This document shows, in pieces, positions 3,986 to 53,007 of a stretch of 64,000 nt of DNA. Under the pieces are notes generated by a model. It worked only from the letters and a program-made list of their open reading frames with translations. It ran no database searches and was not told the origin of the DNA. Origin of the DNA: Candidatus Shapirobacteria bacterium (GTDB taxonomy: Bacteria; Patescibacteriota; Microgenomatia; UBA12405); the NCBI GenBank assembly GCA_041666965.1, contig JBAYFX010000002.1, positions 8,417 through 72,416 on the forward strand, read 5' to 3'. Numbering within the stretch: position 1 is the first letter of the stretch; every line of letters begins with the position of its first letter. The translations under genes and the position numbers were made by a program.

Positions 3986-4768
3986 CTACCAACTTACAGT
4001 CACGATCAAAGAGATTATTACGGCCACCAAAATCCACCCCAAACTCATAATTGATTTTTTAAACAATCTTTCCCGAATCGTCAGTTGTATCAGGCTTATT
4101 AATATGTATTGAAACGACACCATATACAAGGAACTCTTAAATACCCCCGTTGGCCAAAAAGACAGTACCATCGCCATTTGGGACATCATCCACACCGAAG
4201 CCAAAACATAAGACATAATTGGTAAGTCTTTACCATCATCCGGTAATTCAATTAGCACCGACCAAACAATGTAAGTAAAAATAAAAGGAGTTACCGCCAA
4301 AAATATCAGCATGTTTTGCCAAAACCCCAACCGGTACGAAAAAATAACGTCATATACTAAAAACGAAGCAAATAAGGTTACAACTACGCTTACCGTAAAC
4401 GCCGCCCGGTACAACGGCACAGTTTTATAACCCACCGCCACCATAAACACGTTTTCAATCAAATATATCGTATAGTTCACTCCCCCAAACAACAGCAATA
4501 TCGGAATATCCCACCACCAAGGCAATTCCAAAACAGAAATAAACATCGCCAGTCCAAAAAACCACATAATCGGCAATATAATCGCCGCCAAGCGACTTTT
4601 CCAATCTGAGTAATAAATCAATCCCAGACCGTACCAGGTTGAAAACACCGTCAACGCTAACCCTGTAAATACTCCATATAGTCTGGAATCATAGGGCAAT
4701 TCTACAAACAACAGAAAGCCTAATGCCTGGATTAAGGTTAAAAATAAAAATTTTGCCCGTTTATTCAT
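3986..4768 (-). CDS. Polytopic integral membrane protein, unknown function
   Basis: A 260-aa ORF that is strongly hydrophobic, with multiple predicted TM segments rich in W/Y/F. Confidence 0.5.
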   Translation of the reverse strand: MNKRAKFLFLTLIQALGFLLFVELPYDSRLYGVFTGLALTVFSTWYGLGLIYYSDWKSRLAAIILPIMWFFGLAMFISVLELPWWWDIPILLLFGGVNYTIYLIENVFMVAVGYKTVPLYRAAFTVSVVVTLFASFLVYDVIFSYRLGFWQNMLIFLAVTPFIFTYIVWSVLIELPDDGKDLPIMSYVLASVWMMSQMAMVLSFWPTGVFKSSLYMVSFQYILISLIQLTIRERLFKKSIMSLGWILVAVIISLIVTVSW

Positions 4769-5473
4769 TTATGGGCTCCCAACATTGACTGATTCAACTT
4801 CATCTAACGCCTCCAGTTCATCAATTAAATCCACCAACTGTTGAGTATCCTCCTGGCTCAACTCGAACCTTGCTCCCAAAAACTTATATCTTTTGCCCAA
4901 ACTCACCACCCGCTTACCTTGCTCTTCTAAATACTTTTTAATTACCTCTCCGTTTTCCCCCACCCCGTATTCAATCGTCTCCTCAGTCCAGTCACTCATC
5001 CCTTTTTCCATCAATTGTAACTCTTCCTCTTCACTCAGCTGACCCTCATAGTCAATAACCCCTACTTCCTCAAACTGGAATTTTACGCTCCCTTCATCCC
5101 CCACCGACCCCCCATAAGTCTTAAACAACGACCGAATTTCCCCTAAGCTTCGGTTTTTATTGTCTGTTTCTACTTTTACCATCATTGGCACTCCCCCCGG
5201 CCCGTAACCCTCCAAAAGCAAACTCATTAAATTCTTTTGTTTAGATTGGTAATTACCTAGTAACCGCTCAATATTGTCTTTAGGAACGTTTGCTTCCCTA
5301 GCCTTGTCCAGGGCCACCTTCAGGTAACTGTTAGATTCCGGGTTAATCACTCCACCTCCAAGTTTTATCGCCCCAATTATGGCCCGGGATAATTTGGTAA
5401 AAACTTCACTTCGCTTTTTATCCACCGCCCCCTTGCGATTTTTAATATTGGCCCATTTAGAATGTCCTGACAT
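4769..5473 (-). CDS. yebC: YebC/PmpR family DNA-binding transcriptional regulator
   Basis: N-terminus MSGHSKWANIKNRKGAVDKKRSEVFTKLSRAI is the YebC hallmark. Length is 234 aa. Confidence 0.9.
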   Translation of the reverse strand: MSGHSKWANIKNRKGAVDKKRSEVFTKLSRAIIGAIKLGGGVINPESNSYLKVALDKAREANVPKDNIERLLGNYQSKQKNLMSLLLEGYGPGGVPMMVKVETDNKNRSLGEIRSLFKTYGGSVGDEGSVKFQFEEVGVIDYEGQLSEEEELQLMEKGMSDWTEETIEYGVGENGEVIKKYLEEQGKRVVSLGKRYKFLGARFELSQEDTQQLVDLIDELEALDEVESVNVGSP

Positions 5474-6281
5474 AGCTGCTGTATTTTAACAAATCGGCCA
5501 TCCCTCTCCCAATAACCATTTCTACACCGGCTTTAATTTTTATATCTTTCTTAAGCTCACAGTTCCACAATTGGTTAACTTTATTAATTTGTCTTAAATA
5601 ATTATTGCCCGTTTCTTCCAAGTTATATTTTATTTGGCACAAATTAATTTCTCTATTACTAATGTTGGCTACATTACTCACCCACATTCCCGCCCACACC
5701 AGTCTTTGGGCCACAAAAGATCCTAAACCTTTTTGGTCAGTCCCGTTATAAATCCGCCACTCTACCCCTCCCCGGTCAATTGGAGTATATCCGGTAATCA
5801 CTTGCTTATCCCAATTGTTAAAAATTTCTCCCGTCTCCACTAACCCCAACTCGTCTTCCCTAACAATCCAGCTGCTTCCTTCCCATTTCCACCACAGCCA
5901 TCTTCCGGGGGACCATTTTTTCCACACCTCTTCCACCACTACCTCTCTTGTGCTACTTATAATTTTATCCGGTAATAAGCCAAAATTGTAAAATATTACT
6001 TTGTCCATTAAATTTGTTCCGCCATCGATTTGTTTAACCTTTTCCAGATTTCCGGTTTCATACCACCCCCACCCTCCGGGTACCCAAATTGGTACCTGTT
6101 TGGGCACAATCGCCGTGGCCACCATTTTCCGCTTAGGTGACCAATTAACTACCCTCATTCCCCAGTTGCCGTAAACCACTACCAACCACTCTTTTTCTTG
6201 GCCCAAACTTTTTATCATAGTCCCAAAAACCAAGGCCATTATCCCCAAAATTATTATTAGCGTCCTATGTTTCGATTTCAT
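5457..6281 (-). CDS. Membrane-anchored protein with LytR_C-like C-terminal domain
   Basis: N-terminal TM helix. The Trp-rich segment VEWRIYNGTDQKGLGSFVAQRLVWAGMWVSNVAN fits the LytR_C pattern (V.V.NGt...GLA...a..L). Confidence 0.4.
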   Translation of the reverse strand: MKSKHRTLIIILGIMALVFGTMIKSLGQEKEWLVVVYGNWGMRVVNWSPKRKMVATAIVPKQVPIWVPGGWGWYETGNLEKVKQIDGGTNLMDKVIFYNFGLLPDKIISSTREVVVEEVWKKWSPGRWLWWKWEGSSWIVREDELGLVETGEIFNNWDKQVITGYTPIDRGGVEWRIYNGTDQKGLGSFVAQRLVWAGMWVSNVANISNREINLCQIKYNLEETGNNYLRQINKVNQLWNCELKKDIKIKAGVEMVIGRGMADLLKYSSYVRTF

Positions 6282-8789: not shown

Positions 8790-9119
8790 CTATGCTAAAG
8801 GATATGCGCTCAATATTACTCTTTGCCTCACAACCTTACAATCAGCTTGTCCACCTGAACTTATAGAGCCTCCCGCTACATCGTTTACACTTCTAATTAA
8901 CATTTCACACACCGAAGCGTCCTCTGGCGCTGGATCTACGGTTGCCAAACCCAAAACCCCATTTCTTGATAAGTCAACAACTTCAACCTTTAAACCTTTA
9001 TTTGGAAATGCTCTAACTATATCTTTTCCATTACCACCTAATACCCTTTTTCTTGCTACTAGCCCAAGCGGGCACCAACTTACACATTTTTCTGTTTTTA
9101 AACCAATTTCATCTGCCAT
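8790..9119 (-). CDS. Small Cys-containing hypothetical protein (paralog B)
   Basis: 109 aa. KCVSWCPLGL...VCEMLIRSV...GGQADC parallels NCWPFCPLADY...NCEMLTNRF...GGRDNC in the neighbouring ORF. Confidence 0.4.
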   Translation of the reverse strand: MADEIGLKTEKCVSWCPLGLVARKRVLGGNGKDIVRAFPNKGLKVEVVDLSRNGVLGLATVDPAPEDASVCEMLIRSVNDVAGGSISSGGQADCKVVRQRVILSAYPLA

Positions 9120-9135
9120 TTTCCCGATTATATCA

Positions 9136-10443
9136 CTACTTCTTACTCTCTATATCAAAAAAGCTCACTTGTTTGCCGTTAAAGTACAAATTAAACTGCC
9201 CCGTTGGTCCATTTCGGTGTTTCTCAATCGAGCAGGTCACTACTTCGCGCACCTCTTCATCCTCGCGATGTAAAAACATGACCACATCCGCGTCCTGTTC
9301 TATACTTCCCGATTCTCTTAAGTCCGACAGTCTTGGCTTGCCCCCTCGAGCCTCCATTGCCCGTGAAAGTTGGGCTGCCGCTACAATTGGTATTCCCAGT
9401 TCCCGGGCTAAGTTTTTAAGTCCCTGAGAAATCTCTGACACTTCCTGAACCCGGTTGTCCCGCGTCTGCCCATGCATTAGCTGTAAATAGTCCACCAATA
9501 TAAATTTAATTCCCTTGTCCACCTGTAACCGCCGCGCCTTTGCCCTCAACTCAGTCACCGTTAATCCCGGAGTATCGTCAATATATAGCGGTGATTCGGC
9601 CAATATTCCCATTGATTCTGAAATAGAATTATAGTCATCATCCGACAATTGCCCCGTTTTCAGTTTCCAGGCGTCAATCAACCCCTGGCGCACCAGCAAC
9701 CGATCTCCCAATTCCTCCTTACTCATTTCCAGTGAAAACACACAGGTGGGCAGTTTTTCTTCAACGGCCACGTACCTGGCAATATTCAAACAAAAAGCCG
9801 TCTTCCCCACACCCGGCCGGGCCGCCAACACAATCAAGTTGCTATTTTGCATTCCCGCAAGCAAAGTGTCTAGCCCTTTAAATCCTGTTGGTACCCCCCT
9901 CAATCCTCCCTTTTGCTTTTGCAGTTCATCCAGCCTATCAAAACTGGCCGTCAGCACTTCTTTCATTGACACTGGTACATTTTTGATGTGCTTTTGGGCC
10001 AAAACAAACACTTCCTGCTCGGCAAAATCCAAAAGTTGGTCGGTTGGCAAAGTCTCGTCCAGTGCCTTCTCGGTAATCCGGGCACTGGCAGACACCAGTT
10101 CCCTTCGGGCTGACAATGATTGAATAATTCGCCCATAACTTTCCACATTAGCGCTTGTTGGTACCTCATTGGCCAACTCCACTAAAAACGCTCTCCCGCC
10201 TACCTTTTTTAATAATTTTGCTTCTTTAAGTTTCTGACTAACTGTTACTAAGTCAATTGGAATTCTCTTCTCATAAAGGCTAAGCATGGCCTCAAATATT
10301 TGGCCATAATTATGGTTATAAAAATGAGTCGGCTTCAAAAACTCTGATACTTCAATTATGGCGTCATTATCAATTAAAATCGATCCCAACACACTAACTT
10401 CTGCCTCACTAGAATTTGGCGGTGTCCGATACTCAGTGGTCAT
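9136..10443 (-). CDS. dnaB: Replicative DNA helicase DnaB
   Basis: Walker A ARPGVGKTAFCLNIA, SLEMS and the QLSR arginine-finger region. 435 aa with no intein. Confidence 0.9.
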   Translation of the reverse strand: MTTEYRTPPNSSEAEVSVLGSILIDNDAIIEVSEFLKPTHFYNHNYGQIFEAMLSLYEKRIPIDLVTVSQKLKEAKLLKKVGGRAFLVELANEVPTSANVESYGRIIQSLSARRELVSASARITEKALDETLPTDQLLDFAEQEVFVLAQKHIKNVPVSMKEVLTASFDRLDELQKQKGGLRGVPTGFKGLDTLLAGMQNSNLIVLAARPGVGKTAFCLNIARYVAVEEKLPTCVFSLEMSKEELGDRLLVRQGLIDAWKLKTGQLSDDDYNSISESMGILAESPLYIDDTPGLTVTELRAKARRLQVDKGIKFILVDYLQLMHGQTRDNRVQEVSEISQGLKNLARELGIPIVAAAQLSRAMEARGGKPRLSDLRESGSIEQDADVVMFLHREDEEVREVVTCSIEKHRNGPTGQFNLYFNGKQVSFFDIESKK

Positions 10444-39279: not shown

Positions 39280-39375
39280 CTTAACGAACGAGGCAAACTA
39301 ATTTTTTGGGCGCGCAGCGATACCGGTAAACGCGAAGCACTTTAACCGGCAAGTTCGAGCACCCAAAAAACGGTT
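39280..39375. repeat. Hairpin-containing intergenic repeat, copy 1 (frr-tsf spacer)
   Basis: GAGGCAAACTAATTTTTTGGGCGCGCAGCGATACC...AAGTTCGAGCACCCAAAAAACGGTTGCC. The TTTTTTGGG/CCCAAAAAA arms are complementary. Confidence 0.7.
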
Positions 39376-39392
39376 GCCAAGTTCAATCTTTT

Positions 39393-39878: not shown

Positions 39879-39955
39879 GAGGCAAACTAATTTTTTGGGC
39901 GCGCAGCGATACCCGAAGGGAAGTTCGAGCACCCAAAAAACGGTTGCCGAAATTC
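39879..39955. repeat. Hairpin-containing intergenic repeat, copy 2 (tsf-rpsB spacer)
   Basis: Same 35-nt left arm and 28-nt right arm as copy 1, with a 7-nt centre instead of 26 nt. Confidence 0.7.
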
Positions 39956-39964
39956 ATAAACTGA

Positions 39965-40980: not shown

Positions 40981-42192
40981 TTAGCTTAATGTCTCACCCA
41001 CCACTGACCTAATTGCTCCAATAACCTGCTGCTCTACATCAGGATTATTCCTACTGCTTCCGTCTTCAAATTTTTCCCATACAGCCGGCTCCGAGCCGAC
41101 AGCATGCACATTAAACAAACGTCCACCCATCGTAACCACCAAAATTCCCCAATCGGCACTCCGGCTTACCCTAATACTTACGCTTATCCCGCCAATAGTT
41201 ACTACCCCGTCTATGTCTTGTCTAGATTCGATAAGCTGATCCCTAACTCTATCTAATAATCCTCTGTCAGCTTTAATTCTTACCTTTTCAACCGCAAACC
41301 TTTGCTCAAGACTGTCCCCTCCGGTAACTATCAGTGGCCGGGTCGGACCTTTAGCATCGACCGCTCCCTCCGCTTTTATCGGTTCCCACACTTTTGTAAA
41401 GTTCTGATCGTCTTTTCTACCACTAAACTCTGCCATCTCCGAACCAAAGAGTCTTATTAATCTCCGCATAGTTTTATTAACCTCGCCCACTGAAAATGTA
41501 TCACTCCCCAATGGTCTAAAAACAACCTCATCATTCACCTGGTTTAATCCCTCTACTTTGAAATTTTTTCCACCATTGTCCAAAACATTCACTCTCGGAT
41601 TATCACCATCACCTCCTTGAATAATTACCATCATCATTTCTCCTCTTCCATCTTCGGTTAGTTGGCAATGTAACACCGTGTGAATACTACCATCTTGGCT
41701 CCTATGCTCTTTACCCCCTAACCTTTGTAATCCGGCTACAATTACTCCAAATCTTGAATCTTCTGGTGTCAAACAAAACTCGCTTCTTGAATTAGTATCA
41801 ACAGTCTTAGCTACCTCTCTTGTCCCCACTGATATTATTTTCGCCTCCGCCGATTTCACTGTTATCTCCTCACCTCCCATTCTCTTTTCAGGTACATAAC
41901 CAGTATCAAGACCTTGCAAACCTTTCGTTTTTCCGGCTGCGCGATTCTTCCTCACCAACTCATCAGTCCAGTTCCAAGCAGACATTCCCCTATCATCCGC
42001 GTCCGCTCCCCCATCTCTCCACCTTAGTCTACTTACTGCTTTAAATATTATTTCACCATTTCCCAAGTTCCTAATTCTAAAAACACCTTGCTCTTGCTCT
42101 CTTTCCTGATATACGATATTTTCATCAATCACCTCCCCCCCAAACCTAACATGATAAACATATTTTTGACCTTCAGGACAATTCTTACACAT
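40981..42192 (-). CDS. Hypothetical protein, island gene (G/E/R-rich, 403 aa)
   Basis: Long uninterrupted ORF with no recognisable motif. Its composition is atypical for the rest of the window. Confidence 0.45.
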   Translation of the reverse strand: MCKNCPEGQKYVYHVRFGGEVIDENIVYQEREQEQGVFRIRNLGNGEIIFKAVSRLRWRDGGADADDRGMSAWNWTDELVRKNRAAGKTKGLQGLDTGYVPEKRMGGEEITVKSAEAKIISVGTREVAKTVDTNSRSEFCLTPEDSRFGVIVAGLQRLGGKEHRSQDGSIHTVLHCQLTEDGRGEMMMVIIQGGDGDNPRVNVLDNGGKNFKVEGLNQVNDEVVFRPLGSDTFSVGEVNKTMRRLIRLFGSEMAEFSGRKDDQNFTKVWEPIKAEGAVDAKGPTRPLIVTGGDSLEQRFAVEKVRIKADRGLLDRVRDQLIESRQDIDGVVTIGGISVSIRVSRSADWGILVVTMGGRLFNVHAVGSEPAVWEKFEDGSSRNNPDVEQQVIGAIRSVVGETLS

Positions 42193-42216
42193 ATGCCAAT
42201 AATATCACAAACTAGA

Positions 42217-42408
42217 TCATGTTTTAACCTTGTTTTCCTCCGTTATGATCAGCCTGGCTTGAGGTAATTCTGGTTTAATCGGAACAATTACTAAACCATT
42301 TGTATCAACTCCTTTTCTCTTCCACCCTCCTAACGGTTCCCATGGTCCTTTTGGTATCTGAAATCCATTATCATTATCTAAAATTTTTTTATAATCATGC
42401 CTTCCCAT
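42217..42408 (-). CDS. Small hypothetical protein (63 aa)
   Basis: Short ORF between island genes. Low support. Confidence 0.25.
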   Translation of the reverse strand: MGRHDYKKILDNDNGFQIPKGPWEPLGGWKRKGVDTNGLVIVPIKPELPQARLIITEENKVKT

Positions 42409-42468
42409 AATTAATTATACTACGCACCCAGTAAGTACACCGTAAAAATTTAATCAGTATTACTACTT

Positions 42469-43059
42469 TTACAAAAGTCCCATTTTCATCATTTGTACGT
42501 TAAATACTCCCATAACCTTAGTTGCTATTTCACTGGCTTTTGTTATCGACATGTCACACAAATTAAAGACCTTGAAACTAGTCAATTGCGCATCTTTCAC
42601 CACAAAACTCAAACCATACCAGTTTTCCCCTGTTCTTACTCTAAGTAAAAACTGATCCTCTACCTTATCCCATTGCGCAACAAATTGATCATCAGGATTC
42701 ATACCAAATATCAAGGAAACACCATTGTAACCAGCCATAGTCAAACTTTTTAATGTGCTACGCATTAGTAAAATCCTATACCAATCATTTTCCCCTATTC
42801 CCGCATCAATCATTTGATTTCTTAATTCATTACTGGTGCCGCTCCATTTTAAAGCTGCTCCGGTTTTATCATATTTAGCTATAGAATAAGTAGGGTCTCT
42901 TAGTCGAATCCCTTCCCCTACAGGGTATGGCAAGCTCCCATCGTCCACAGCCGCCCCAAATCCAAAACATTTTGGGGATAGTTGTACCCCCTTTCCCCAC
43001 AAAGTCGGCCCGTCACTTCCTCTAATCTTACTTTCAATATCTCCAAAACTCATCACCAA
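42469..43059 (-). CDS. Hypothetical protein, island gene (196 aa)
   Basis: ORF preceded by a conserved ATATTATAGGTTTA...TATAAT-N5-ATG architecture shared with the next gene. Confidence 0.45.
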   Translation of the reverse strand: MVMSFGDIESKIRGSDGPTLWGKGVQLSPKCFGFGAAVDDGSLPYPVGEGIRLRDPTYSIAKYDKTGAALKWSGTSNELRNQMIDAGIGENDWYRILLMRSTLKSLTMAGYNGVSLIFGMNPDDQFVAQWDKVEDQFLLRVRTGENWYGLSFVVKDAQLTSFKVFNLCDMSITKASEIATKVMGVFNVQMMKMGLL

Positions 43060-43085
43060 TTATACCATATATAAACCTATAATAT
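43059..43085 (-). promoter_or_regulatory. Conserved promoter-like element upstream of 42469-43059
   Basis: The minus strand reads TAATATATTATAGGTTTATATATGGTATAATTGGTGATG. A TATAAT hexamer sits 5 nt before the ATG, suggesting a leaderless start. The ATATTATAGGTTTA box is shared with 43790-43815. Confidence 0.4.
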
Positions 43086-43103
43086 ATTAAAACTTCTACA
43101 CCC

Positions 43104-43790
43104 TCACCCTAAAGTAGATTGACCATAATAACCATCTTTTCCCGCTAAATCTACTGTAGTTTCTGGATTATTTATTATACTGGGCAACAAAGCCATTATT
43201 TTGTCTATCCCAATTCGTTTTTTACCATTTTCTAATCTAGAATCTCTACCTTCAACTGTAAATTCAACTAACTTACTTCTCTCAAATTTACAGTCCACCA
43301 GTACACTATCAGGATTATCAATTTCACTTACAATCATTCTCAAATTTTTTGTGGAATTATCCCAAAACAGTATTAGTCTATTTCCGCTCTCTCCTATCAA
43401 CTTATTAATTAATGCTGATTCCAATCCTTCAATACGTGAGACCTTATCTTCTAATTTATTTGTTAACCTCATAATCATTTCCCATCTCTCTTGGTTTATT
43501 CCTACTCCCTCCATCATCATAGCCAACCCATAATTATCCATACCTTCCCACAGCTTCGACCACTCTTCTTGTTGCAATGGGCCCCCTACCCCCTGAGTCT
43601 GGTTTTCTACCATATCAGTCAAACCGTGTACAAAAGTCATTGATCCTTCCCCGGGTGGATAACCCCCCACAGTCGGCCGCGTCCAAACACCTATCAATCC
43701 CCATCTTAAAACGAAATCAGCGCCTTGCCCCAAACTCCACTCCCCATCTCCTAATGTGCCCCTTGGGCTCACTTCGTAAATCATCGACAA
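43104..43790 (-). CDS. Hypothetical protein, island gene (228 aa)
   Basis: ORF with the same upstream architecture as the downstream gene. No recognisable motif. Confidence 0.45.
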   Translation of the reverse strand: MSMIYEVSPRGTLGDGEWSLGQGADFVLRWGLIGVWTRPTVGGYPPGEGSMTFVHGLTDMVENQTQGVGGPLQQEEWSKLWEGMDNYGLAMMMEGVGINQERWEMIMRLTNKLEDKVSRIEGLESALINKLIGESGNRLILFWDNSTKNLRMIVSEIDNPDSVLVDCKFERSKLVEFTVEGRDSRLENGKKRIGIDKIMALLPSIINNPETTVDLAGKDGYYGQSTLG

Positions 43791-43815
43791 TTATAGCATA
43801 AGTAAACCTATAATA
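43790..43815 (-). promoter_or_regulatory. Conserved promoter-like element upstream of 43104-43790
   Basis: The minus strand reads AACTAATATTATAGGTTTACTTATGCTATAATTGTCGATG: the same box, a TATAAT, a 5-nt gap and an ATG. Confidence 0.4.
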
Positions 43816-44979
43816 TTAGTTTTTATTATCGTACCACCTAGGCAAGTCCACCCCAAAACACCCAATTACCCCATCACCCTCAACTTCTTTAAACATTGAA
43901 TTAAGATGAACCAGTTTTATCTCTCCTAACCCACCCTCCGTTACACAACAAGACAGCATTTCCACTGCTTTTCTCATTTTTGTTCTTATTCTCCAGTCTA
44001 CCGACTCAACCCCTTTTCCTGTTTGATTCATCAAATTCACTAATACCACCTCTCCCTCCTCATCAAAATTCGCTATTATTTTCCAATTTTCATTTGTAAC
44101 TTTATCTTGAATCACGATTCTTAATATTCTGTCATTTGACTCCCAAGCTCCAATCGCTTTATTAGTTTCTCCGTCTGCTACTAAAATTCCCACATCCGCA
44201 CCCGCATCATAATATAAAGAATTCTCAAGCATCCCTTTTACCCCATAAATCCCATCCAAATCCCCTTGGTTAAAACCCAACCCTTCTAATCTTTTTCTAA
44301 CTTGATATGACGTCCCCTCTTCCCACCCGCCCCCACTCATTTCCTGTTCTTCACGTAACTCAGTTATGTTTTCTTTGGCTGCTTTATGTACTACCTGCCA
44401 CATACTACTCCAATCAAAACCCTCTTTAATATCACCATCTATCTCAGTTACCCTGTCACCCTCAAACCTTACTCTAACTTTTGCTAAAGTTTCACCCTCT
44501 TCTTCTGGCTCCAATTCAATTCTCAAAACTCCATCATCAGCATAACTTGCCAGTAATTTACGGTCCCCTATTCGGTAAGTTAAATATCCAACCTCTCCGC
44601 TCGCCATATCAGTCCCAATTTGTTTTTTTATATCAACCACGCTTAAAAATGCCGCACCCCCCAACTTCATTTCCACCAGCTTACGTTTATCCAATCCACT
44701 AGGTTTCAAAGTCAATGTCTCCGCTTGGGGCATTACTTCACCCTCCACTTTCAGAGTCTCCATAGCTTCTCTAAAGGCCATTTCGTTTTCAATACCTTCC
44801 ATTAAACTCTCCCGGCTTCTCATTGCCCTGGTTACTTCTGGTAATTTTGGTCTTGGTCCGTCCCCCGTCGGATATTCCATTCCTGTTACTCGTGTCCTAA
44901 ATTGACTCAAGCACCCGGCTACTTGCCAACCAAGAGGGTTATACCCTCTCTTTCCTTCACCGCTTTCTATTTTAGCCAT
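43816..44979 (-). CDS. Hypothetical protein, member of island paralog family (387 aa)
   Basis: N-terminal GYNPLGWQVAGC resembles DGLALRPVTGC of the 642-aa protein. Carries a W/E-rich module (AIGAWESNDRILRIVIQDKVTNENWKIIANFDEEGE). Confidence 0.45.
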   Translation of the reverse strand: MAKIESGEGKRGYNPLGWQVAGCLSQFRTRVTGMEYPTGDGPRPKLPEVTRAMRSRESLMEGIENEMAFREAMETLKVEGEVMPQAETLTLKPSGLDKRKLVEMKLGGAAFLSVVDIKKQIGTDMASGEVGYLTYRIGDRKLLASYADDGVLRIELEPEEEGETLAKVRVRFEGDRVTEIDGDIKEGFDWSSMWQVVHKAAKENITELREEQEMSGGGWEEGTSYQVRKRLEGLGFNQGDLDGIYGVKGMLENSLYYDAGADVGILVADGETNKAIGAWESNDRILRIVIQDKVTNENWKIIANFDEEGEVVLVNLMNQTGKGVESVDWRIRTKMRKAVEMLSCCVTEGGLGEIKLVHLNSMFKEVEGDGVIGCFGVDLPRWYDNKN

Positions 44980-45251
44980 TAGTTACTTGGGTGGTACATG
45001 CCCACCCTTGCCCCTAATTTAACTGCATAATCGATTAGGAGTAAATCATCTGTCACCCTGAGTCCCTTTAAATTCAGTTGTATGTCACCTCCACCTCTTG
45101 GTTGTGGTAAATCTGCCACTACCAACTCAGTTGTCAACCCATATTCACCAATACACTTTCGGCAGGCGTCAACCGGCTCTCTTCTCCCCCCTGCTTCCAC
45201 CACCGCCAATCCAACTCCGATTTCAGTTTTGCAAAATGTACATTTACTCAT
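44979..45251 (-). CDS. Zn-ribbon small protein (CxxC...CxxC), island gene
   Basis: 90 aa. CTFCKTEIG...ACRKCIGEYG. Translationally coupled to its flanking genes (1-2 nt junctions). Confidence 0.4.
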   Translation of the reverse strand: MSKCTFCKTEIGVGLAVVEAGGRREPVDACRKCIGEYGLTTELVVADLPQPRGGGDIQLNLKGLRVTDDLLLIDYAVKLGARVGMYHPSN

Positions 45252-45253
45252 AA

Positions 45254-46246
45254 TTAATTCAAATTTAAATTTATAATTCGTCCATTAGTTACAACTGTAT
45301 CTTCCTTCCCCCCATAAACTCCAAACCTATCAACTTTACTTGGATCAACCCATCCCAAGTCAGGTTTAGGGTCATCTACAAATTCAAAGACCGGAATCTC
45401 TTCTTTCTGTGTCTTCTCTTGTTCTAGTTCTACTACTTTCCAATCAGAAGTAACCAACCCGCAAATCAGACCTGTTTCAGCTCCCTCTTCTCCCAGTTCT
45501 CCGCCCTCAGCCTCTTCAATTATCTCAATTCCCCTAATACTCTCCGCTTCTCCGTACTCCATTAAGTGGTTCAAAAAACTACTCACTATTCCTCTTTGAA
45601 CCTCATCAGGCAAACTACCCGCCTGGGTAATAAACGCAAATGCCTCAACTTCCCCGCTCTCACCAAACCCAAAGCTAATCCCAAAATCTTCCATCGAGTC
45701 GTCACTCCAAACAACTGCCAAAGTCCCCTCCGCCCTATCCCACATCACCGAAGCATCAAAACTTCCAGCAGCTAAAAATGCACAGGCGACCTGCTCCATA
45801 CCATTAAGCGCTTTGCCTAATTCCTTCTTAAAATACAATATTCTGGCCCAACTTTCCGGACCAAACCCAAATCCTTCCATCTCCGTTCGGAAATCCCCCA
45901 GCTTCCTCCATTCAATTTCCCTTTCAATTACCTTCAAGCCTTCGTATTTGGGCATATCCGTTACCGGTACTCCCATTCCGGCATAAACGCACAACGATTC
46001 TTCCCAAACTCTAAAAGCCTCTTCCATTTTTAAAAACCGCACTGGCAATACCGGGTCAATCCCTTCCTTCTCCCTCCTGAACCCTACTCCCTTCAGACTC
46101 TCTCCAGTTGCGCCCCCCCCTGCCACGTCCATAACTAACTGCGAATATGGCCTCAACGCCACTCCATCATGACCCTCCCTCCTTTCACTTTTATCTTCAC
46201 CTCTTATTTCTTTTTCTAAATCTCCCATCAGTTTCTCCCCCACCAA
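45254..46246 (-). CDS. Hypothetical protein, member of island paralog family (330 aa)
   Basis: N-terminus MVGEKLMG...DGVALRP parallels MGEKKMG...DGLALRP of the 642-aa protein. Shares the GFGPESWARILYFKKEL motif. Confidence 0.45.
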   Translation of the reverse strand: MVGEKLMGDLEKEIRGEDKSERREGHDGVALRPYSQLVMDVAGGGATGESLKGVGFRREKEGIDPVLPVRFLKMEEAFRVWEESLCVYAGMGVPVTDMPKYEGLKVIEREIEWRKLGDFRTEMEGFGFGPESWARILYFKKELGKALNGMEQVACAFLAAGSFDASVMWDRAEGTLAVVWSDDSMEDFGISFGFGESGEVEAFAFITQAGSLPDEVQRGIVSSFLNHLMEYGEAESIRGIEIIEEAEGGELGEEGAETGLICGLVTSDWKVVELEQEKTQKEEIPVFEFVDDPKPDLGWVDPSKVDRFGVYGGKEDTVVTNGRIINLNLN

Positions 46247-48156
46247 CTACTAATAACTAATCTAGGAGCAAGTTCTTTTATTGTAATTCTTTGCAAACTT
46301 TTCTCACCCATAACACCCCTTAATTCCCAATCAACTGGAAATTCACCTTTGGTCGTGTCATCCACTCTTTTCTCCTTTTTGGGAATAACTTCACAACTCC
46401 AATCATCCTGTTTTGCCGCCATTTCCCCCAATAGTGCCAACCCCATACCCACTTTTCTATTTTGCCACCTTTTTCCCTTTCCCTCTGTTAGTTCCATATC
46501 CCACGCCGCCAATTCTCCACTTTCGTCAAACATAAAATGTAACCTATGTACTTCTTCCCCCTTTCTCCAACCTACCTCTACAAACCCCGGCTTTTCCCCG
46601 CTTACCCAAACCGTATGTTTTCTCAGTTCTGTTTTCAGTTTTATTACTGTACCCTCTGGCTCGTTTATCAAACTTTTTTCAATCCCTCCGGCCATTACCA
46701 CTAAGTCGTACCACCGCTCATGAGTAAACCCCGCCTCCTCCAAAGCTTGCTGAAACTCCCCTACTTTGCTCCAAACCACACCTAGTTGGCTCTCCAGTTT
46801 CTTGTCATTACCTTTATTTAATCCAATTACCCACGACCCTTTAGCTCTGAAAATTTTTGAAGTTAATGTTTCTTCACAAAAGTAATTTGGTTCTGCCTCA
46901 AGAGGTTCGTTTTTAGGTCTAAATCCCCAAAACTTTGCTTCGTGATTTTTCTCCACCCAGCACCGTCCTCCGTCCCTTTCCTCAACCCTAGGTCTCCTCT
47001 CTGCTCTAGGCCCCACTTCTTCCAGCTCAACCAAATTAATATCAATATTCGTCTCTTCCGTCTTCATTAGTCGCATTATGGCCCTTACCTCACCAATTCC
47101 TTCCACCCATTCATCTTTTGGGTACTCTTCACCGTTCCTTTCCACCGTTAACATCGCCAAGTCACCCGCCTTGTCAAACATAAAAGTCAGTGTCTTTTCC
47201 TCACCCTGCCCCGCCCTGTCCCAAATCAGTGTCAACCGGCATTTTCCTTGTTCCCACTCCAACCCAATTACCTTTTCTCCAATGGTAATCTCTCCCACTG
47301 CCATTTTATTACTCTCACCTACAAGTTTAGCTTCCCCAATATCTTTTAGATGAAGTACGTTTACCCAATCTTCGTGTTCAATACCGCAGTCATTTAACAA
47401 CTGCTGTCTTTTACCAACATTTTCCCAAGTCTCAGGCTCCCCTTCACCTAATTGGTCAACTACCAAAGTTCCTTCAGTTGCTAACTGCTGTTCGGTAAAT
47501 GCTCCAATGTCATAAATCAAACTACTTCTGTCCACCTTCTTCATTTTGGCAAGTAATTTCTCTATAACAGTTTTTCTTGTTTCTAAGTCTCCTACCGACT
47601 CTGTGTCAATTTGCAAATCCAAGCACTCAAAGCCACCTTCTTTGCTAAAGCCAATACACAACGAATGCCATCTCAACTCCTCATTATTCCAAAAAATATT
47701 TAGCGAACTCTCGTCCACATCCCATTGAGCCCCCACCTCTTCTCTATTAATCCTTAAATTCCCACTAGAAATAATTTGTTTTTTGTCGCTATCAATAACT
47801 ATCCTTAACTCTTGGCGTAAATACAACACATCCGCCCAAGCTTCCCGGTCAAAGCCGTTTTTCACCAATTCCTCTCCCGCTTTAGTTCCCTTCATTTGAT
47901 CCCAACTACTACTAAAGTCATTTTCTGTCCGATATGGCCATCTGGTCCAAGGCACTTCGTCTCCTCCATGGGCCGCCAAACAAAACTGTACATCTACTCC
48001 CCAAGACTGCTCAAGGTCCGCAATTATTCTTGGAAACAAGTCACTAGAATATGCCGATTCAGCCCCCGGTTCCAATGCTTCCCTAACACATCCCGTTACC
48101 GGTCTGAGCGCCAAACCATCATTCCCCTCAACCCTGCCCATTTTTTTCTCCCCCAT
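46228..48156 (-). CDS. Hypothetical repeat protein, largest member of island paralog family (642 aa)
   Basis: Three internal copies of a ~150-aa module marked by G(F/I)xHExW..VL.L and W...R.L.hhFDe.GE. No known domain. Confidence 0.45.
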   Translation of the reverse strand: MGEKKMGRVEGNDGLALRPVTGCVREALEPGAESAYSSDLFPRIIADLEQSWGVDVQFCLAAHGGDEVPWTRWPYRTENDFSSSWDQMKGTKAGEELVKNGFDREAWADVLYLRQELRIVIDSDKKQIISSGNLRINREEVGAQWDVDESSLNIFWNNEELRWHSLCIGFSKEGGFECLDLQIDTESVGDLETRKTVIEKLLAKMKKVDRSSLIYDIGAFTEQQLATEGTLVVDQLGEGEPETWENVGKRQQLLNDCGIEHEDWVNVLHLKDIGEAKLVGESNKMAVGEITIGEKVIGLEWEQGKCRLTLIWDRAGQGEEKTLTFMFDKAGDLAMLTVERNGEEYPKDEWVEGIGEVRAIMRLMKTEETNIDINLVELEEVGPRAERRPRVEERDGGRCWVEKNHEAKFWGFRPKNEPLEAEPNYFCEETLTSKIFRAKGSWVIGLNKGNDKKLESQLGVVWSKVGEFQQALEEAGFTHERWYDLVVMAGGIEKSLINEPEGTVIKLKTELRKHTVWVSGEKPGFVEVGWRKGEEVHRLHFMFDESGELAAWDMELTEGKGKRWQNRKVGMGLALLGEMAAKQDDWSCEVIPKKEKRVDDTTKGEFPVDWELRGVMGEKSLQRITIKELAPRLVISSWWGRN

Positions 48157-49183
48157 TTTTTATAAACGCATCTAATGCCAACACTAATTGGGGTACTTCC
48201 GCCATTAATCGCAATCTTTCAACTAAACTCATTGGTTTTGTGCCTCTATTAGCTACAAATTTCACCGCACTCTCCTCTCGTATATCAAATTTCTCTTTTG
48301 TTTTACCTACCTTAAAACACATTTGAAATCCTCCCGGTCTGCCATCCAGCGTGCTCGAAATCATCAGGGTTGTCTCGCCCCCCTCAAACTGCCCCAACCA
48401 TAGTCCTCTTGCCTCACTTTCCGTTACTTTAATAGCCATCCCTCTGCCTCCGTCCTCATCTGGTGGCAAATCCTCCAAATTCACCACTAAATCTTCTAAA
48501 TGTTCACGACCAGACAGTTCCATTCCTCTATTGTCCTGAGCCGAGGTCTTTTCTTCTTCCCGTCCCATTTCAGCCAATAATTCTGGAATCCAAGCCAAAA
48601 TCGCTACTTTTTCTCCCCGACACAATTCCCTCTTTTCACCTGTAGGGGTTGCTAATTCATAGCATTCTCCTTCAACATATTTTAATCCCTCCCCCTCCCC
48701 CCTTTTAATCCCAAGAACCATTCGCTGTTCACTTTCACCCTTATTTACTGTAATTTCAATTCGACTTCTTCTTTTTGTAGTTACGTCCATAAAGGCTCGA
48801 ACCCCAATCTCCCCGGCTTGTAACTCCACCTCAGTTCTTTTTCCGTCTTCTTCTTCTAGAAGCCTTCCAGTCATGGCTTGGGCCAGGTCATTAATCCACT
48901 CCTGTTCAACCCCTCCTCTCCTTATCTCAGGATCAACCTCATCTCGTAGACCCCAAACCACTGTCATAATACGAGTCACTAATTCTCCTTCTATTGGTAC
49001 AGCTCCATTAAGTGCCGCCTCCCGAAACCCACCTCTGAAAAAAGTAGTGCCAGATCCATGTTCTGGTGTGTCTAATAGAAAAAGATTTCGCGTCCCCTTA
49101 CCAATTTCACCCGCCCCCGTCTTCAATCCATCATCATTTTTTAGTGTTCTACCTTTTCCAATATTTCGGAAATACTCAGCCAC
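48128..49183 (-). CDS. Hypothetical protein, first gene of island operon (351 aa)
   Basis: GTG start preceded by AAAGGAAC (an SD-like sequence). E/G/R-rich. Overlaps the next gene by 29 nt. Confidence 0.45.
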   Translation of the reverse strand: MAEYFRNIGKGRTLKNDDGLKTGAGEIGKGTRNLFLLDTPEHGSGTTFFRGGFREAALNGAVPIEGELVTRIMTVVWGLRDEVDPEIRRGGVEQEWINDLAQAMTGRLLEEEDGKRTEVELQAGEIGVRAFMDVTTKRRSRIEITVNKGESEQRMVLGIKRGEGEGLKYVEGECYELATPTGEKRELCRGEKVAILAWIPELLAEMGREEEKTSAQDNRGMELSGREHLEDLVVNLEDLPPDEDGGRGMAIKVTESEARGLWLGQFEGGETTLMISSTLDGRPGGFQMCFKVGKTKEKFDIREESAVKFVANRGTKPMSLVERLRLMAEVPQLVLALDAFIKNGGEKNGQG

Positions 49184-49385
49184 TCCGGTTCCTTTGCTTT
49201 AAACCCAATAAATTATTACGTTCCATAATCCGGTTGAATATAAGCACTAATTTTTTGCCCGTGTAATCTATCCCTGTTTGGTCCACAAACTCCGCTAACA
49301 TTCAAGGATTGTGAAAGTGTTCCCTGGTAAACAATTATTCCCATCTCAACTCCGGTAGTTTCTCTTCCCTTTTTTAAACAGATAT

Positions 49386-50000
49386 TTGACATTGTTTTGT
49401 TTTAAAATCCGGGTTCTTGTGTTGTGTGTTGCTTGTGTTTGTTTTGTTTTTTGTTGGCTTGGTTTGTGCCCTTGGCCGCTTTTCCCGCCTGTCGGCGGGA
49501 CGGCATCTCGGGCATCGCCGCTTCTTTGTGTGCGCCCAAGCCACCGTCCCGCCTGCTTTTACGTCGTCGTTACCTCCTCAGGTAGACCTTGCTTGGCACG
49601 GCATTCTGGACATAACTTCCGTCCATAGACCCTGCGTCCGCATCCACCTTGGCACCAGCACCCGTTTTTGCAACGAGTAGAGTCTGACGCCCTTCGACGA
49701 CGCTTTTCCTCAGCCGGCTGTTTGTTGGGAGACATGGTGTCGCCCTCCTTTGAGCGACCCTATACGAGGGGGGTTGGGGAAAGACATTTGTGGCGATTCG
49801 GGAAACCCGAATCGGGGGGCGCAACAGCGCCGAAATCCAACTCGCAAAACTTCAGCGAATGGAACCCAAACGACTCCGGCTCTACCGGAACCCTTTGGGG
49901 TCCATCCACTAACAATCTATTCTTTTCTTCTAGCGCTCTAGCGTACTCTCGTACCAGCGAACTAACGTACTATTTTTACAAGAACCCGGATTGTTAATGA
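49386..50000. other. GC-rich (~57%) structured noncoding element, candidate large ncRNA or cis-regulatory/recombination structure
   Basis: No coherent ORF; only mutually overlapping short frames on both strands. GT-rich 5' part. Nested inverted repeats GGCGGGACGG(49497)/CCGTCCCGCC(49544) and ACGTCGTCG(49559)/CGACGACGC(49693). Hairpin CGATTCGG-GAAA-CCGAATCG at 49794-49814, followed by GGCGC-AACA-GCGCC. Confidence 0.5.
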
Positions 50001-50158
50001 ACCTTCCAGGGCTCCCTCCCAAGCGTTATGGGACTTCACCTTAAAATTACCCCATAATATAAACTCAATTTAATAAATTTGCAAGCACCAAAAGCCCATT
50101 TTTCAGACGTAAAAGAAGTTTGTAACAATTTAGTAAGAAATACTACTTAATATATCTT

Positions 50159-50374
50159 TTATCCTATATTTCCATTCCTCTTATTATTTGTCTTTCTGTG
50201 CTTTACCTCTTCCCAATGTTTTAACGACTGTAAATCAGCACCGTCCACACTATATATTCCCAAATTCATCCGACAGCGCCAGCAAAGAGCCCACTCTTCA
50301 CCGTTTGCCAATTTTGCCACCACCTTAAGCGGTTTGTAATGTCTACACCCAGGACAAAATTCTAAAACCGCCAT
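50159..50374 (-). CDS. Zn-ribbon small protein (71 aa)
   Basis: CPGC...CWRC four-Cys arrangement with a basic tail. Confidence 0.4.
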   Translation of the reverse strand: MAVLEFCPGCRHYKPLKVVAKLANGEEWALCWRCRMNLGIYSVDGADLQSLKHWEEVKHRKTNNKRNGNIG

Positions 50375-50392
50375 AATTAATCATACTCTCCC

Positions 50393-50860
50393 CTACCCCT
50401 CAATCGTCCACAACCTTACTGTATTCCTACGGACTAAGTCACTAATTCCAAAACTCTCATCCGGGTCAACCTCTTTCCATTGCCGGGGTAAAAACACTCC
50501 AAAAGGCTGGGGCCACAAATATGCCCCCACCCAAAAAATAACCGGATCCTCCCGAGCGATTATATTTATTTCTGTCATTGACCAGGTTTTACTCATTAGA
50601 GCAATCTGTCTCAATTGAGGCCATATTCCCCCATCCACTCGATACTTATAACTTCCAGTTAAACTATATTTAAAACTCGGTTCTGCTACTTTTTGAACTG
50701 AAATCAAACTGGGACGGACTATTGGCACTTCCGTTATATTAATCCTCAATACCTGCCAAGGATAAACCTGCAGCACATCTCTTTTTTCCAACATCGGCGA
50801 ATATAACTCAAATAAATAAACTTTTAGTAAATAAATCAACCGACTTTGCTCTATACTCAT
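50393..50860 (-). CDS. Hypothetical protein (155 aa)
   Basis: ORF with no motif. The GGGGTAGGGGAGAGT motif lies at its 3' flank. Confidence 0.35.
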   Translation of the reverse strand: MSIEQSRLIYLLKVYLFELYSPMLEKRDVLQVYPWQVLRINITEVPIVRPSLISVQKVAEPSFKYSLTGSYKYRVDGGIWPQLRQIALMSKTWSMTEINIIAREDPVIFWVGAYLWPQPFGVFLPRQWKEVDPDESFGISDLVRRNTVRLWTIEG

Positions 50861-50862
50861 TT

Positions 50863-53007
50863 ATGTCCGACATGGGCTTAACTTTTCTTGAAGTACGTTT
50901 GCCTCAAACCAATGAGTTTCCCCTGGAAGCCATGAGTTCTCTTCTGTCTAATTTTAGCGGGGCTGTCTCCCGTGGGTTTGTTGACCGAATTTTTGGCCGT
51001 TTTCCCGTCATTTCTTCTTTGGAAGTTGTCTTAAGTGGTAACCTTATTCGCTTCTTTCTCGTCACCCCCACCAGCCGCTCGGAATTTATCAAAAACCAAA
51101 TTTTGGCCCAGTACCCCAGTGCCCTCCTTCGAGAGTCTACAGATGATTACCTGCCTCAAGTTTTTGCCCCCTCCCAACTTGTTTTATCCCGCTCCTACGA
51201 CTATCCGCTCAAAACCAGTAAGGATTTTAGAGACATTGATCCTTTTTCCTCCATTCTCTCTCCTCTGGCTCGCTCTACTTCTGCCACCGATTTCTTTCTT
51301 TATCAAATACTTCTCTCCCCCGCCCCAGACAATTGGCAATCATCTATTACCTCCATCATTCAAAACGGAATTTTGGTTGATTCCGCCAAGAACTTCCGCC
51401 AGTCCCACCCCGACAAAGCCGTCTTTGAGCAAAAAATCCAGTTCCCCGGTTTAACTGCACAAATCAACATAGCTTCCACTTCCCCGGGCCTTCTTTCAGC
51501 TTTCAGCTCCAGCTTCGGGGTTTATACCAATCCCCGGGGAAACATCATTAAATCCTCTTCTCCTGGTCCTTTTAGCCGCTCTAAACTCACCAAATCCATC
51601 ACTACCCGCCGCCTTTTAGGCCGCCGATTAATCCTCAACACCGAAGAATTAGCCGTCCTCTGGCATTTACCTAACAAATACACCAAAATCCCCAACATTG
51701 CCTGGGGCCAAAATTTGTATGCCGACCCTCCGGAAAACCTACCGGTCTCCGATGGCGCCACCGACGAGCAAAAACAAAACATCAACTTTTTTGCCCGTAC
51801 CGACTTCAAAAACCGTAGTGCCATTTTTGGCATCAAAGAAGGCGAGGACCGCCGCCGTCACACCTATATTATTGGTAAGTCCGGTACTGGTAAAACTACC
51901 CTCATTTCCAATATGGCCATCGATGACATTCGTAAAGGCCGGGGAGTTGCCATCATCGACCCTCACGGCGATCTTTGCCAAACCATTCTCGATTATATTC
52001 CTGCCCACCGCGCCAACGACTGCTGTTATTTCAATCCGGCCGACCCCGATTACGCTTACCCTCTAAATGTTTTAGAAGCTCAAAACGATTCTCAGCGGGA
52101 GCTGGTAGCCTCTGGGGTCATTTCCATTTTCAAAAAACTCTACGGTAACATTTCCTGGGGTCCCCGCCTCGAACATATCCTGCGCAACGCCGTCTTAACT
52201 CTTGTTAATGTTCCAGGCTCAGACTTGTCCCACATTGTCGAAATTTTAACTAATAAAACCTTCCGGCAAAAGATCGTTCCTCAGTTAACCAACCAAACTC
52301 TTAAAAACTTCTGGATCAACGAGTTTGACCAAATGGACCCAAAGTTCCAAAACGAAGCCATTGCTCCAATTTTAAATAAGGTTGGCCAGTTCATATCAAG
52401 CAGTAACATCCGTAACACCGTCGCCCACCCCGTCTCCAAGGTTCGGATTCAAGACATCATGGACCAAAAAAAGATTCTTATTGCCGACCTGTCTACCGGT
52501 AAGCTAGGCGAGGACAACTCAGCCTTACTCGGCGCCATGTTAATCACCCAAATCCAACTTTCGGCCATGAACCGGGTATTTCAGGCCCAAGAGGAGCGCT
52601 CCGACTTTTATTTATATGTTGATGAATTCCAAAATTTCGCCACCGAAGCTTTCATCAAAATTCTGTCCGAAGCCCGCAAGTTCCGCCTTAACCTAATTAT
52701 CGCCAACCAGTACATGAGTCAGCTTGAGCGTCCCATTCAGGACGCGATTTTTGGCAACGTCGGCTCCCTAATTGCCTTTGTGGTGGGTAATCAGGATGCT
52801 TTCATCTTAAGTAAAGAATTCGGCCCCAATTTTCCCCCCGAAGATTTGGTCAAAATCGGTAAATACCAAATCATTTCCAAACTCAGCATCGATTCAGCTA
52901 CCACCGAACCCTTCTATGCTCACACTTTAGCTCCACCCGACTGTAAAAACCAAGGCCGCGACAAACTCATCCGCAATTCCCAGGAACGCTGGGGTAAACG
53001 TAAATAA
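50863..53007 (+). CDS. TraD/VirD4/TrwB-like P-loop ATPase (type IV coupling-protein-like), apparently cytoplasmic
   Basis: Walker A IIGKSGTGKTTLISN, IIDPHGDL, Walker B-like YLYVDEFQNF, and ARKFRLNLIIANQYMSQL resembling the TraD/TrwB ARKYG...QS.SQL block. No N-terminal TM segments. Confidence 0.6.
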   Translation: MSDMGLTFLEVRLPQTNEFPLEAMSSLLSNFSGAVSRGFVDRIFGRFPVISSLEVVLSGNLIRFFLVTPTSRSEFIKNQILAQYPSALLRESTDDYLPQVFAPSQLVLSRSYDYPLKTSKDFRDIDPFSSILSPLARSTSATDFFLYQILLSPAPDNWQSSITSIIQNGILVDSAKNFRQSHPDKAVFEQKIQFPGLTAQINIASTSPGLLSAFSSSFGVYTNPRGNIIKSSSPGPFSRSKLTKSITTRRLLGRRLILNTEELAVLWHLPNKYTKIPNIAWGQNLYADPPENLPVSDGATDEQKQNINFFARTDFKNRSAIFGIKEGEDRRRHTYIIGKSGTGKTTLISNMAIDDIRKGRGVAIIDPHGDLCQTILDYIPAHRANDCCYFNPADPDYAYPLNVLEAQNDSQRELVASGVISIFKKLYGNISWGPRLEHILRNAVLTLVNVPGSDLSHIVEILTNKTFRQKIVPQLTNQTLKNFWINEFDQMDPKFQNEAIAPILNKVGQFISSSNIRNTVAHPVSKVRIQDIMDQKKILIADLSTGKLGEDNSALLGAMLITQIQLSAMNRVFQAQEERSDFYLYVDEFQNFATEAFIKILSEARKFRLNLIIANQYMSQLERPIQDAIFGNVGSLIAFVVGNQDAFILSKEFGPNFPPEDLVKIGKYQIISKLSIDSATTEPFYAHTLAPPDCKNQGRDKLIRNSQERWGKRK

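Follow-up and report, generated by a model that had tools for sequence, protein, structure and literature searches.

We analyzed a GC-rich element in a 64,000-nt stretch of DNA (hereafter the window) from a Candidatus Shapirobacteria bacterium, a member of the candidate phyla radiation (CPR) whose genome was assembled from a metagenome. The element (positions 49401-49997) is a cassette within the transcript of a minus-strand operon, defined by a boxA-like motif and a covarying long-range helix that brings its ends together, and it is not a free-standing large noncoding RNA of the GOLLD, ROOL or OLE kind. It is structured in the operon-sense orientation, and further units with the same motif and helix occur in related lineages, some of them in tandem arrays. 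These observations support the conclusion that the element is a real, selected RNA structure, neither chance nor gene debris. We consider the chances evenly balanced that it is a single cassette for transcription and processing, located in the leader of the operon of the surrounding gene island, similar to a ribosomal RNA (rRNA) operon leader with its leader-trailer helix and co-opted for small genes; the structural and comparative parts of this proposal are well supported.

Structure and strand of the element

The GC content is 0.53 at 49386-50000, 0.59 at 49460-49900 and 0.55 at 49421-49977, compared to 0.43 for the window, which bears out the GC-rich stretch reported in an earlier note on this DNA. 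The complementarities listed in that note are all present, within about 3 nt of the positions that it gave: GGCGGGACGG (49494-49503) is complementary to CCGTCCCGCC (49544-49553), ACGTCGTCG near 49561 is complementary to CGACGACG near 49696, and in a plus-strand reading the hairpin CGATTCGGGAAACCCGAATCG at 49794-49814 is joined by GGCGC-AACA-GCGCC at 49818-49831. The GT-rich tract that it described is likewise found, at 49421-49450. An inverted repeat of 20 nt that brackets the whole element (49978-49997 and 49401-49420, with a 15-nt perfect core at 49406-49420 and 49978-49992) had gone unmentioned; it is the longest inverted repeat in the window among those with arms less than 2.5 kb apart.

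The stability of the fold was assessed by comparing the 597-nt element on each strand with 100 dinucleotide shuffles. No shuffle was as good on either strand, with z-scores of -5.3 for the plus strand and -6.7 for the minus strand. A nucleotide homologue of the element was found in one other lineage only, that of locus L015 (identical to L016 and L021, and about 85% identical to the window genome-wide), where the corresponding z-scores are -3.6 and -7.2. The long hairpins contain 6-8 G.U pairs that would become A.C mismatches on the opposite strand, and for hairpins HA and HF, described below, the sense strand gives a far more stable fold than its complement in the window and L015 alike. A promoter-like site (TTGCAA-17-TATATT) is also oriented along the minus strand. 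The G.U-rich hairpins, the whole-element z-scores and this site together indicate that the transcript is sense to the operon, and not antisense to it.

The earlier note had instead proposed a plus-strand, stand-alone large structured noncoding RNA, antisense to the operon. A GNRA-type loop does cap one of the hairpins (HC) on that strand, and the plus strand likewise beats its shuffles. However, the minus strand folds better in the window, in L015 and in 16 of 16 units tested; the G.U pairs are specific to it; the promoter-like site and an open reading frame (ORF) with a ribosome-binding site sit on it; and no Rfam family matches. An antisense transcript of this kind is therefore hardly credible.

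The Rfam 15 covariance models, applied to the element at the gathering threshold and then at E values up to 10, returned no family but only microRNA-like hairpin noise. The element thus falls outside the Rfam families, among them GOLLD, ROOL, OLE, HEARO and raiA. A degraded GC-rich gene was considered as an origin of the element and ruled out: the period-3 signal across the whole element is 0.7, as against 9-24 in the flanking genes, and no conserved frame exists outside one small ORF. The reading of the element as a structured RNA was accordingly right as to a real fold outside all Rfam families, and wrong in treating it as purely noncoding, since a zinc-ribbon ORF lies inside. A local z-score scan places the local structure mainly in the untranslated parts on both sides of that ORF.

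All features of the element are described here on the minus strand, in 5' to 3' order. The promoter-like site at 50056-50084 consists of TTGCAA (50084-50079), a 17-nt spacer and TATATT (50061-50056); it was predicted by a consensus scan and would place the transcript start near 50049. Its hexamers are identical in L015, where the spacer differs, and it lies 54 nt upstream of the boxA-like motif. Between the two, in the position that boxB has relative to boxA, is the leader hairpin HL (UCCCA...UGGGA, 50017-50033), which in L015 reads UUCUAC...GUAGAA at the same aligned columns, with two C-G pairs changed to U-A on both sides and no indels. The boxA-like motif, GTTCATTAACAAT (49990-50002), agrees with 10 of the 11 positions of GYTCTTTAANA. 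The bracketing repeat forms the closing helix H0, with its 5' arm at 49978-49997 (core AATCCGGGTTCTTGT at 49992-49978) and its 3' arm at 49401-49420 (core ACAAGAACCCGGATT at 49420-49406). Both the minimum-free-energy and the centroid fold contain the closing helix, in the window as well as in L015 and L013, and H0 closes the two folds of the window.

Inside the closing helix, the long hairpin HA (49847-49918) has 31 bp with 8 G.U pairs and a free energy (ΔG) of -40.1 on the sense strand vs. -23.7 on the antisense strand; its counterpart at the matching position of L015 has 24 bp, 6 of them G.U pairs, an unrelated apical sequence, and ΔG values of -35.0 and -11.9, respectively. It is followed in the fold by hairpins HB (GGCGC UGUU GCGCC) and HC (CGAUUCGGG UUU CCCGAAUCG) at 49794-49831. 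HC and the 17 nt downstream of it are identical in L015 (a 38-nt run), and HB is exchanged there for CGGC GUAU GCUG with the hairpin kept. The small ORF (49559-49735) has its Shine-Dalgarno sequence, AAGGAGG, within hairpin HD (49736-49760). On the 3' side, HF (22 bp, beginning 5 nt past the stop codon) and HG (UCCCGCC GACA GGCGGGA) lie at 49481-49556 and compete for the same CCCGCC segment. A comparison of the window and L015 folds gives two changes on both sides and a one-sided one for the lower stem of HF, and the HG of L015 is identical but for one loop base. An unstructured A/C tract (49421-49473; 32 A, 16 C, 5 G and no U), which is the minus-strand view of the GT-rich tract, leads into the 3' arm, and a 47-nt run including this arm is identical in L015. 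The next small gene of the operon (49216-49392, minus strand, 58 aa) starts 9 nt past the helix and is a homologue of a 75-aa zinc-ribbon gene of L015.

The two homologous units were compared hairpin by hairpin, because RNAalifold was unreliable in the indel-rich parts of their two-sequence MAFFT alignment. Both repeat arms, HC with its 17 nt and the 3' 125 nt have been kept, and the long 5' hairpin and the ORF region have diverged to about 50-60% identity. Searches with blastn against phage and plasmid collections found nothing, and a scan of IMG/VR for hairpin HC gave no match.

A family of units with a common motif and covarying helices

In most relatives, rpsB adjoins a divergently transcribed gene for a type IV coupling-protein-like protein (DUF8128), followed by topA and dprA. 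In the window, an island of about 10 kb (40981-50860), composed of genes without Pfam or PHROGs assignment and all on the minus strand, lies between rpsB and the DUF8128 gene, with the element near its head between two small zinc-ribbon genes. Different inserts occupy this site in other lineages; small genes are often abundant in them, and their GC content is often high. Judging from these gene orders, the interval between rpsB and the coupling-protein gene is an insertion hotspot.

A systematic scan for the boxA-like motif followed by an inverted repeat identified 17 distinct units in 10 Shapirobacteria lineages, all in the operon sense and upstream of the coupling-protein gene. L011 has five units in tandem, L036 has three, also in tandem, L038 has two, and L003, L004, L013, L037, L039, L015 and the window have one each. 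The motif consensus over the 17 units is G[TC]NC[TC]TT[AG]AYAA, and the arm begins 7-13 nt after the first base of the motif. In each unit this arm has a perfect complement 440-1060 nt downstream. The sequence of the arm is specific to the unit, and as it differs in every one of them, the helix covaries. Where the helix continues past one non-Watson-Crick pair into at least three further pairs, that pair is always a G.U of the sense strand and never an A.C. Some units enclose two to four ORFs.

The combination of motif and repeat was observed 25 times (19 in the operon sense), whereas 20 Markov resamplings gave 5.1 on average and never more than 10. All 16 units that were folded are strongly structured, with sense z-scores from -3.4 to -9.9 and a sense minimum free energy below that of the antisense strand in 16 of 16. 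A candidate binding motif for a common protein, ATYCGGGTT, which occurs in the arms and in HC, was rejected as a shared signal, being not enriched beyond the element itself.

Several of these loci have features of their own. In L011, the five tandem units of 468-597 nt (2425-5820, minus strand) are located directly upstream of the coupling-protein gene, and a T-rich tract (e.g. TTTTATTTCCCC) follows each 3' arm. In the three units of L036 (4570-7626, minus strand), the motif reads G[CT][TAC]CTTTGACAAC, with GCTCTTTGACAAC in unit one, and the arms are related to each other (ACAACCCAACA...); these units enclose GC-rich small genes, including those for zinc-ribbon proteins of 78 aa and 83 aa. In the L013 lineage, the motif is preceded by an extended -10 sequence (TGnTAttat) and a conserved 60-nt leader hairpin. 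A leader hairpin of about 60 nt (GCGCAATTCGAAACAGCAGACCGCGACGTACCGTTGCGGTACGGAAACAGAGAATGCGGA) in this position, after the extended -10 and before the motif, is seen in L013 (5214-5305), L039 (6040-6131), L037 (6363-6416) and L038 (6404-6454); an Rfam scan of the region, performed in L013, gave no match.

Perfect inverted repeats around a short segment are also what an inverton would display, in which the repeats would be crossover sites and a recombinase would flip the cassette to switch the small gene or the downstream operon. The perfect 9-16 nt inverted repeats around segments of 440-1060 bp at the head of the operon fit this explanation, as do arms that are identical within a unit and different between units, which could equally be maintained by recombination. 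Against it, neither the island nor its neighbours contain a recombinase, and the only one among the window ORFs scanned against Pfam, XerC/D-like, is 47 kb away. The promoter-like site lies outside the repeats; a single orientation is found in seven assemblies of three lineages (the window and L001; L015, L016 and L021; L039 and L040); the conserved motif is present at the 5' arm only; the helix extensions use sense-strand G.U pairs only; and the interiors are strongly and strand-specifically structured, a fold for which an inverton has no need. We consider an inverton unlikely. The XerC/D-like tyrosine recombinase gene itself is encoded at 2352-3302 on the minus strand of the window. Integron attC sites and shufflons were rejected on reading the unit sequences: these lack fitting core sites and an integrase, and the repeats vary from unit to unit.

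The repeats may also be regarded as transposase sites, the element then being a non-autonomous element similar to a miniature inverted-repeat transposable element (MITE) or a GC-rich cassette gained by horizontal transfer. In favour of this, the element has inverted repeats at its ends and exceeds the host in GC content, it lies in the hypervariable insertion hotspot between rpsB and the coupling-protein gene, and TA dinucleotides stand beside both repeats in L015. However, the 19-mer repeat is single-copy in the window, and a scan of Joint Genome Institute (JGI) metagenomes with it matched L021 (the same as L015) only, apart from chance matches; an 18-mer from the 3' arm yielded chance matches only in IMG/VR. 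Neither a clear target-site duplication nor a transposase was found. Every unit having its own arm sequence, there is no transposase site that the units could share, and the arms have remained perfect while the interior diverged to the extent given above, which indicates that the arms are under selection in place. A mobile-element origin is thus quite improbable.

The enclosed zinc-ribbon ORF and its neighbourhood

According to the earlier note, the stretch had no coherent ORF. The minus strand does contain one, of 58 codons (49735-49559), with AAGGAGG located 8 nt upstream of its ATG. The predicted product has a basic N-terminus, is hydrophilic, and carries a zinc ribbon (CQGGCGRR...LCPEC). 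At the same Shine-Dalgarno sequence and ATG, both of which are conserved, L015 has a 63-codon zinc-ribbon ORF, and the two products share the basic N-terminus and the CxxC...CxxC ribbon, although they are too diverged to match each other by BLASTP. The 58-aa protein matches a 144-aa protein that the GC-rich block of L013 encodes, in the zinc ribbon of the latter, with a pairwise E value of 2e-4, and the 78-aa protein of L036 with an E value of 0.02. The signature C.GCGR...G..LC..CR is common to eight small proteins of the neighbourhood. A search of 5.8 billion proteins and 1.84 billion representatives gave no true homologue of the 58-aa ORF; the single database match, P0003, was discarded as a Cys-rich repeat protein matched by composition. 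Pfam and PHROGs searches with the island proteins and the small ORFs assigned no family and gave just sub-threshold, generic zinc-ribbon hints. On this comparative evidence, the 58-aa ORF is probably a real gene.

Zinc-ribbon paralogues also flank the element on both sides, at 50159-50374 and 49216-49392 in the window and at 8845-9042 and 9777-10004 in L015. The downstream paralogue of the window (58 aa) has lost its first CxxC, which is still present in the 75-aa homologue of L015.

Two further explanations involve this ORF. The first is an mRNA of the hok type, folded back on itself so that 5'-3' pairing and a sequestered ribosome-binding site would block a possibly toxic small protein until processing, with no part for Nus factors. 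The long-range 5'-3' pairing, the ribosome-binding site in a hairpin, the small ORF and the very stable fold all agree with such an mRNA, and so do the alternative hairpins HF and HG adjoining the stop codon. The product, on the other hand, is a basic and hydrophilic zinc ribbon and not a membrane peptide, a consensus scan found no plus-strand (antisense) promoter-like site inside the element, and the motif at the 5' arm, the tandem arrays and the units with two to four ORFs are left unexplained. We regard a hok-type mRNA as distinctly unlikely.

The second explanation is that the small gene is an ordinary one whose untranslated regions happen to be structured, and that neither the motif nor the repeats have a specific function. 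Although the ORF and its ribosome-binding site look real and small genes of this type are common in the hotspot, the structure z-scores fall far outside those of the shuffles in every one of the 16 units, the helices covary, and the combination of motif and repeat exceeds its null about five-fold in a strand-specific manner. This reading is disfavoured, and we hold it to be very improbable.

Further observations concern the surroundings of the element. Two proteins of the island, of 642 aa and 330 aa, have the N-terminal motif DG[LV]ALRP in common. A 155-aa minus-strand ORF (50393-50860) and the coupling-protein gene (50863-53007) have back-to-back starts 2 bp apart, which leave no room for separate promoters, so that one of the starts or one of the ORFs may have been called wrongly; the 155-aa ORF has a weak period-3 signal (2.7). 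An imperfect palindrome of about 75 nt (GGCAACCGTTTTTTGGGTGCTCGAACTT...GGTATCGCTGCGCGCCCAAAAAATTAGTTTGCC) is found after each of the genes rpsB and tsf, at 39290-39385 and 39879-39956 on the minus strand; it contains a 35-nt core that is identical in both copies and in L015, and has the appearance of a repetitive extragenic palindrome or terminator-type hairpin. At the same hotspot, L035 carries at 1652-2093 what is, judged by eye, a pair of a ribbon-helix-helix antitoxin-like and a RelE/ParE-like toxin-like gene. In L011, a perfect 29-nt inverted repeat (9582-9610 and 10084-10112, arms 473 nt apart) is located where the topA match splits in two.

A proposed leader-like cassette and its relation to known systems

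The boxA of the E. coli rrn operons is GCTCTTTAACAA. Scored against the boxA consensus GYTCTTTAANA (PMC5725501), the motif matches at 10 of 11 positions in the window (with the mismatch at position 5) and at 11 of 11 in L011; this consensus is derived from E. coli. In rrn leaders, boxB, boxA and boxC follow each other 5' to 3', boxC lying within the 5' strand of the leader-trailer helix that is cut by RNase III, and boxA has been proposed to anchor the 5' strand of the leader at the polymerase until the trailer emerges (PMC10250234). A boxA is also present upstream of long untranslated arrays of clustered regularly interspaced short palindromic repeats (CRISPR), where it shields the transcripts from Rho (PMC7665894). 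The motif of the element is placed in the predicted transcribed leader, downstream of the predicted promoter and after hairpin HL, whose two changes in L015 are compensatory. Because the motif resembles boxA and the order of the parts is that of rRNA operons, we propose an rRNA-style antitermination and processing unit. No rRNA was matched inside the closing helix, where the enclosed segment holds the 58-aa ORF, and the unit would therefore be a functional analogue or variant of an rrn leader and not a member of that class.

Under this proposal, a promoter near 50084-50056 would start a minus-strand transcript, which would form the short leader hairpin and then expose the boxA-like motif (GUUCAUUAACAA), with the 5' strand of the long-range helix directly after it. 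The next 557 nt would fold into long G.U-rich hairpins around the 58-codon zinc-ribbon ORF, with its ribosome-binding site held in a hairpin. After the U-free, G-poor and unstructured A/C tract, itself a plausible Rho entry site, the 3' strand would pair back and close the cassette. NusB/S10 would load on the motif GUUCAUUAACAAU, so that RNA polymerase would resist Rho across a poorly translated, structured RNA, and the 5' strand would be kept close to the RNA exit channel until the trailer appears there. Cleavage of the closed helix by RNase III would then release a stable, end-paired mini-mRNA, separated from the downstream genes. We infer the identity of the motif as boxA, the loading of Nus factors, the protection from Rho and the cleavage by RNase III by analogy with these systems, and consider the mechanism with Nus factors and RNase III moderately likely.

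Several points weigh against this proposal. The boxA match is a resemblance to an E. coli/gamma-proteobacterial consensus; the window motif departs from it at position 5, as noted, and position 3 of the family motif is variable. Matches to boxA with at most one mismatch are at chance level in the window (14, compared to 15.7 expected). The 506 kb of sequence searched contained no rRNA whose leader could be set beside the motif. Between the motif and the helix arm there is no gap, or even an overlap, but an enterobacterial boxA lies 18-19 nt upstream of boxC. None of nusB, rho and rnc is among the 30 ORFs of window positions 1-32580 that were scanned against Pfam. In contrast to rRNA and CRISPR arrays, the cassettes contain ORFs that look translated, the window unit has a single independent homologue (L015), and a recombination site acting at the DNA level would equally look like perfect inverted repeats.

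More tentatively, and with less confidence than in the proposal for the element itself, it is possible that Shapirobacteria, and perhaps other CPR bacteria, possess undescribed modular RNA cassettes, in which the boxA/Nus antitermination and leader-trailer helix processing of rRNA operons would have been taken over for the transcription, folding and excision of successive, highly structured RNAs, each encoding, and possibly bound by, small basic zinc-ribbon proteins, as a hypervariable array beside a type IV secretion/DNA-transfer locus. If the motif is a working boxA, the targets of Nus factors would extend beyond rRNA, CRISPR arrays and suhB. To our knowledge, almost nothing is known of RNA processing and expression control in uncultivated CPR bacteria, and the cassettes, if the proposal is true, would be a concrete and testable example; they would also define, next to the conserved coupling-protein/topA/dprA locus, a hypervariable region of cassettes that could be of importance to the episymbiotic lifestyle. 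Even if the motif is not a boxA, the motif, the covarying long-range helix and the extreme structure form a new and well-defined signature for comparative genomics. With a working boxA, this would be the first case known to us in which an rRNA-type unit, with an antitermination signal and a leader-trailer helix, surrounds protein-coding cassettes and recurs up to five times in succession.

Among known systems, the intervening sequences of 23S and 16S rRNA are segments of hundreds of nucleotides whose paired ends form a stem cut by RNase III, and some of them contain a small ORF. The cassettes are likewise end-paired segments with a small ORF, but they lie outside rRNA genes. With hok/sok mRNA they share end-to-end pairing, a compact and very stable small-ORF mRNA and a sequestered ribosome-binding site, but not a hydrophobic toxin or an antisense RNA gene, and hok is characterized neither by a conserved 5' motif nor by tandem arrays. 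Invertons and shufflons also have inverted repeats around segments of a few hundred base pairs near genes of surface or transfer functions; the cassettes differ from them in the lack of a nearby recombinase, the one orientation, the unit-specific repeats and the strand-specific structure at the RNA level. As in CRISPR arrays and the suhB leader, where boxA stands at the start of a long and little-translated RNA that Rho would otherwise act on (PMC7665894, PMC5725501), the cassette combines a boxA-like motif with a G-poor A/C tract, but it has no CRISPR array or downstream Nus-factor gene, and a closing helix is present in each unit.

The rRNA operon leader offers the same succession of a promoter, a hairpin, a boxA-like motif, a 5' strand, a structured RNA of 0.5-1 kb and a complementary trailer. 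In both systems the units may follow each other in tandem, as 16S and 23S do, and the sequence of the helix varies while its pairing is kept (PMC10250234). In contrast to the rRNA leader, the cassettes enclose small protein-coding ORFs and occur in up to five units in a row, their helices measure 9-22 bp instead of 25-40 bp, and the motif touches or overlaps the arm, whereas that of the rRNA leader lies 18-19 nt upstream.

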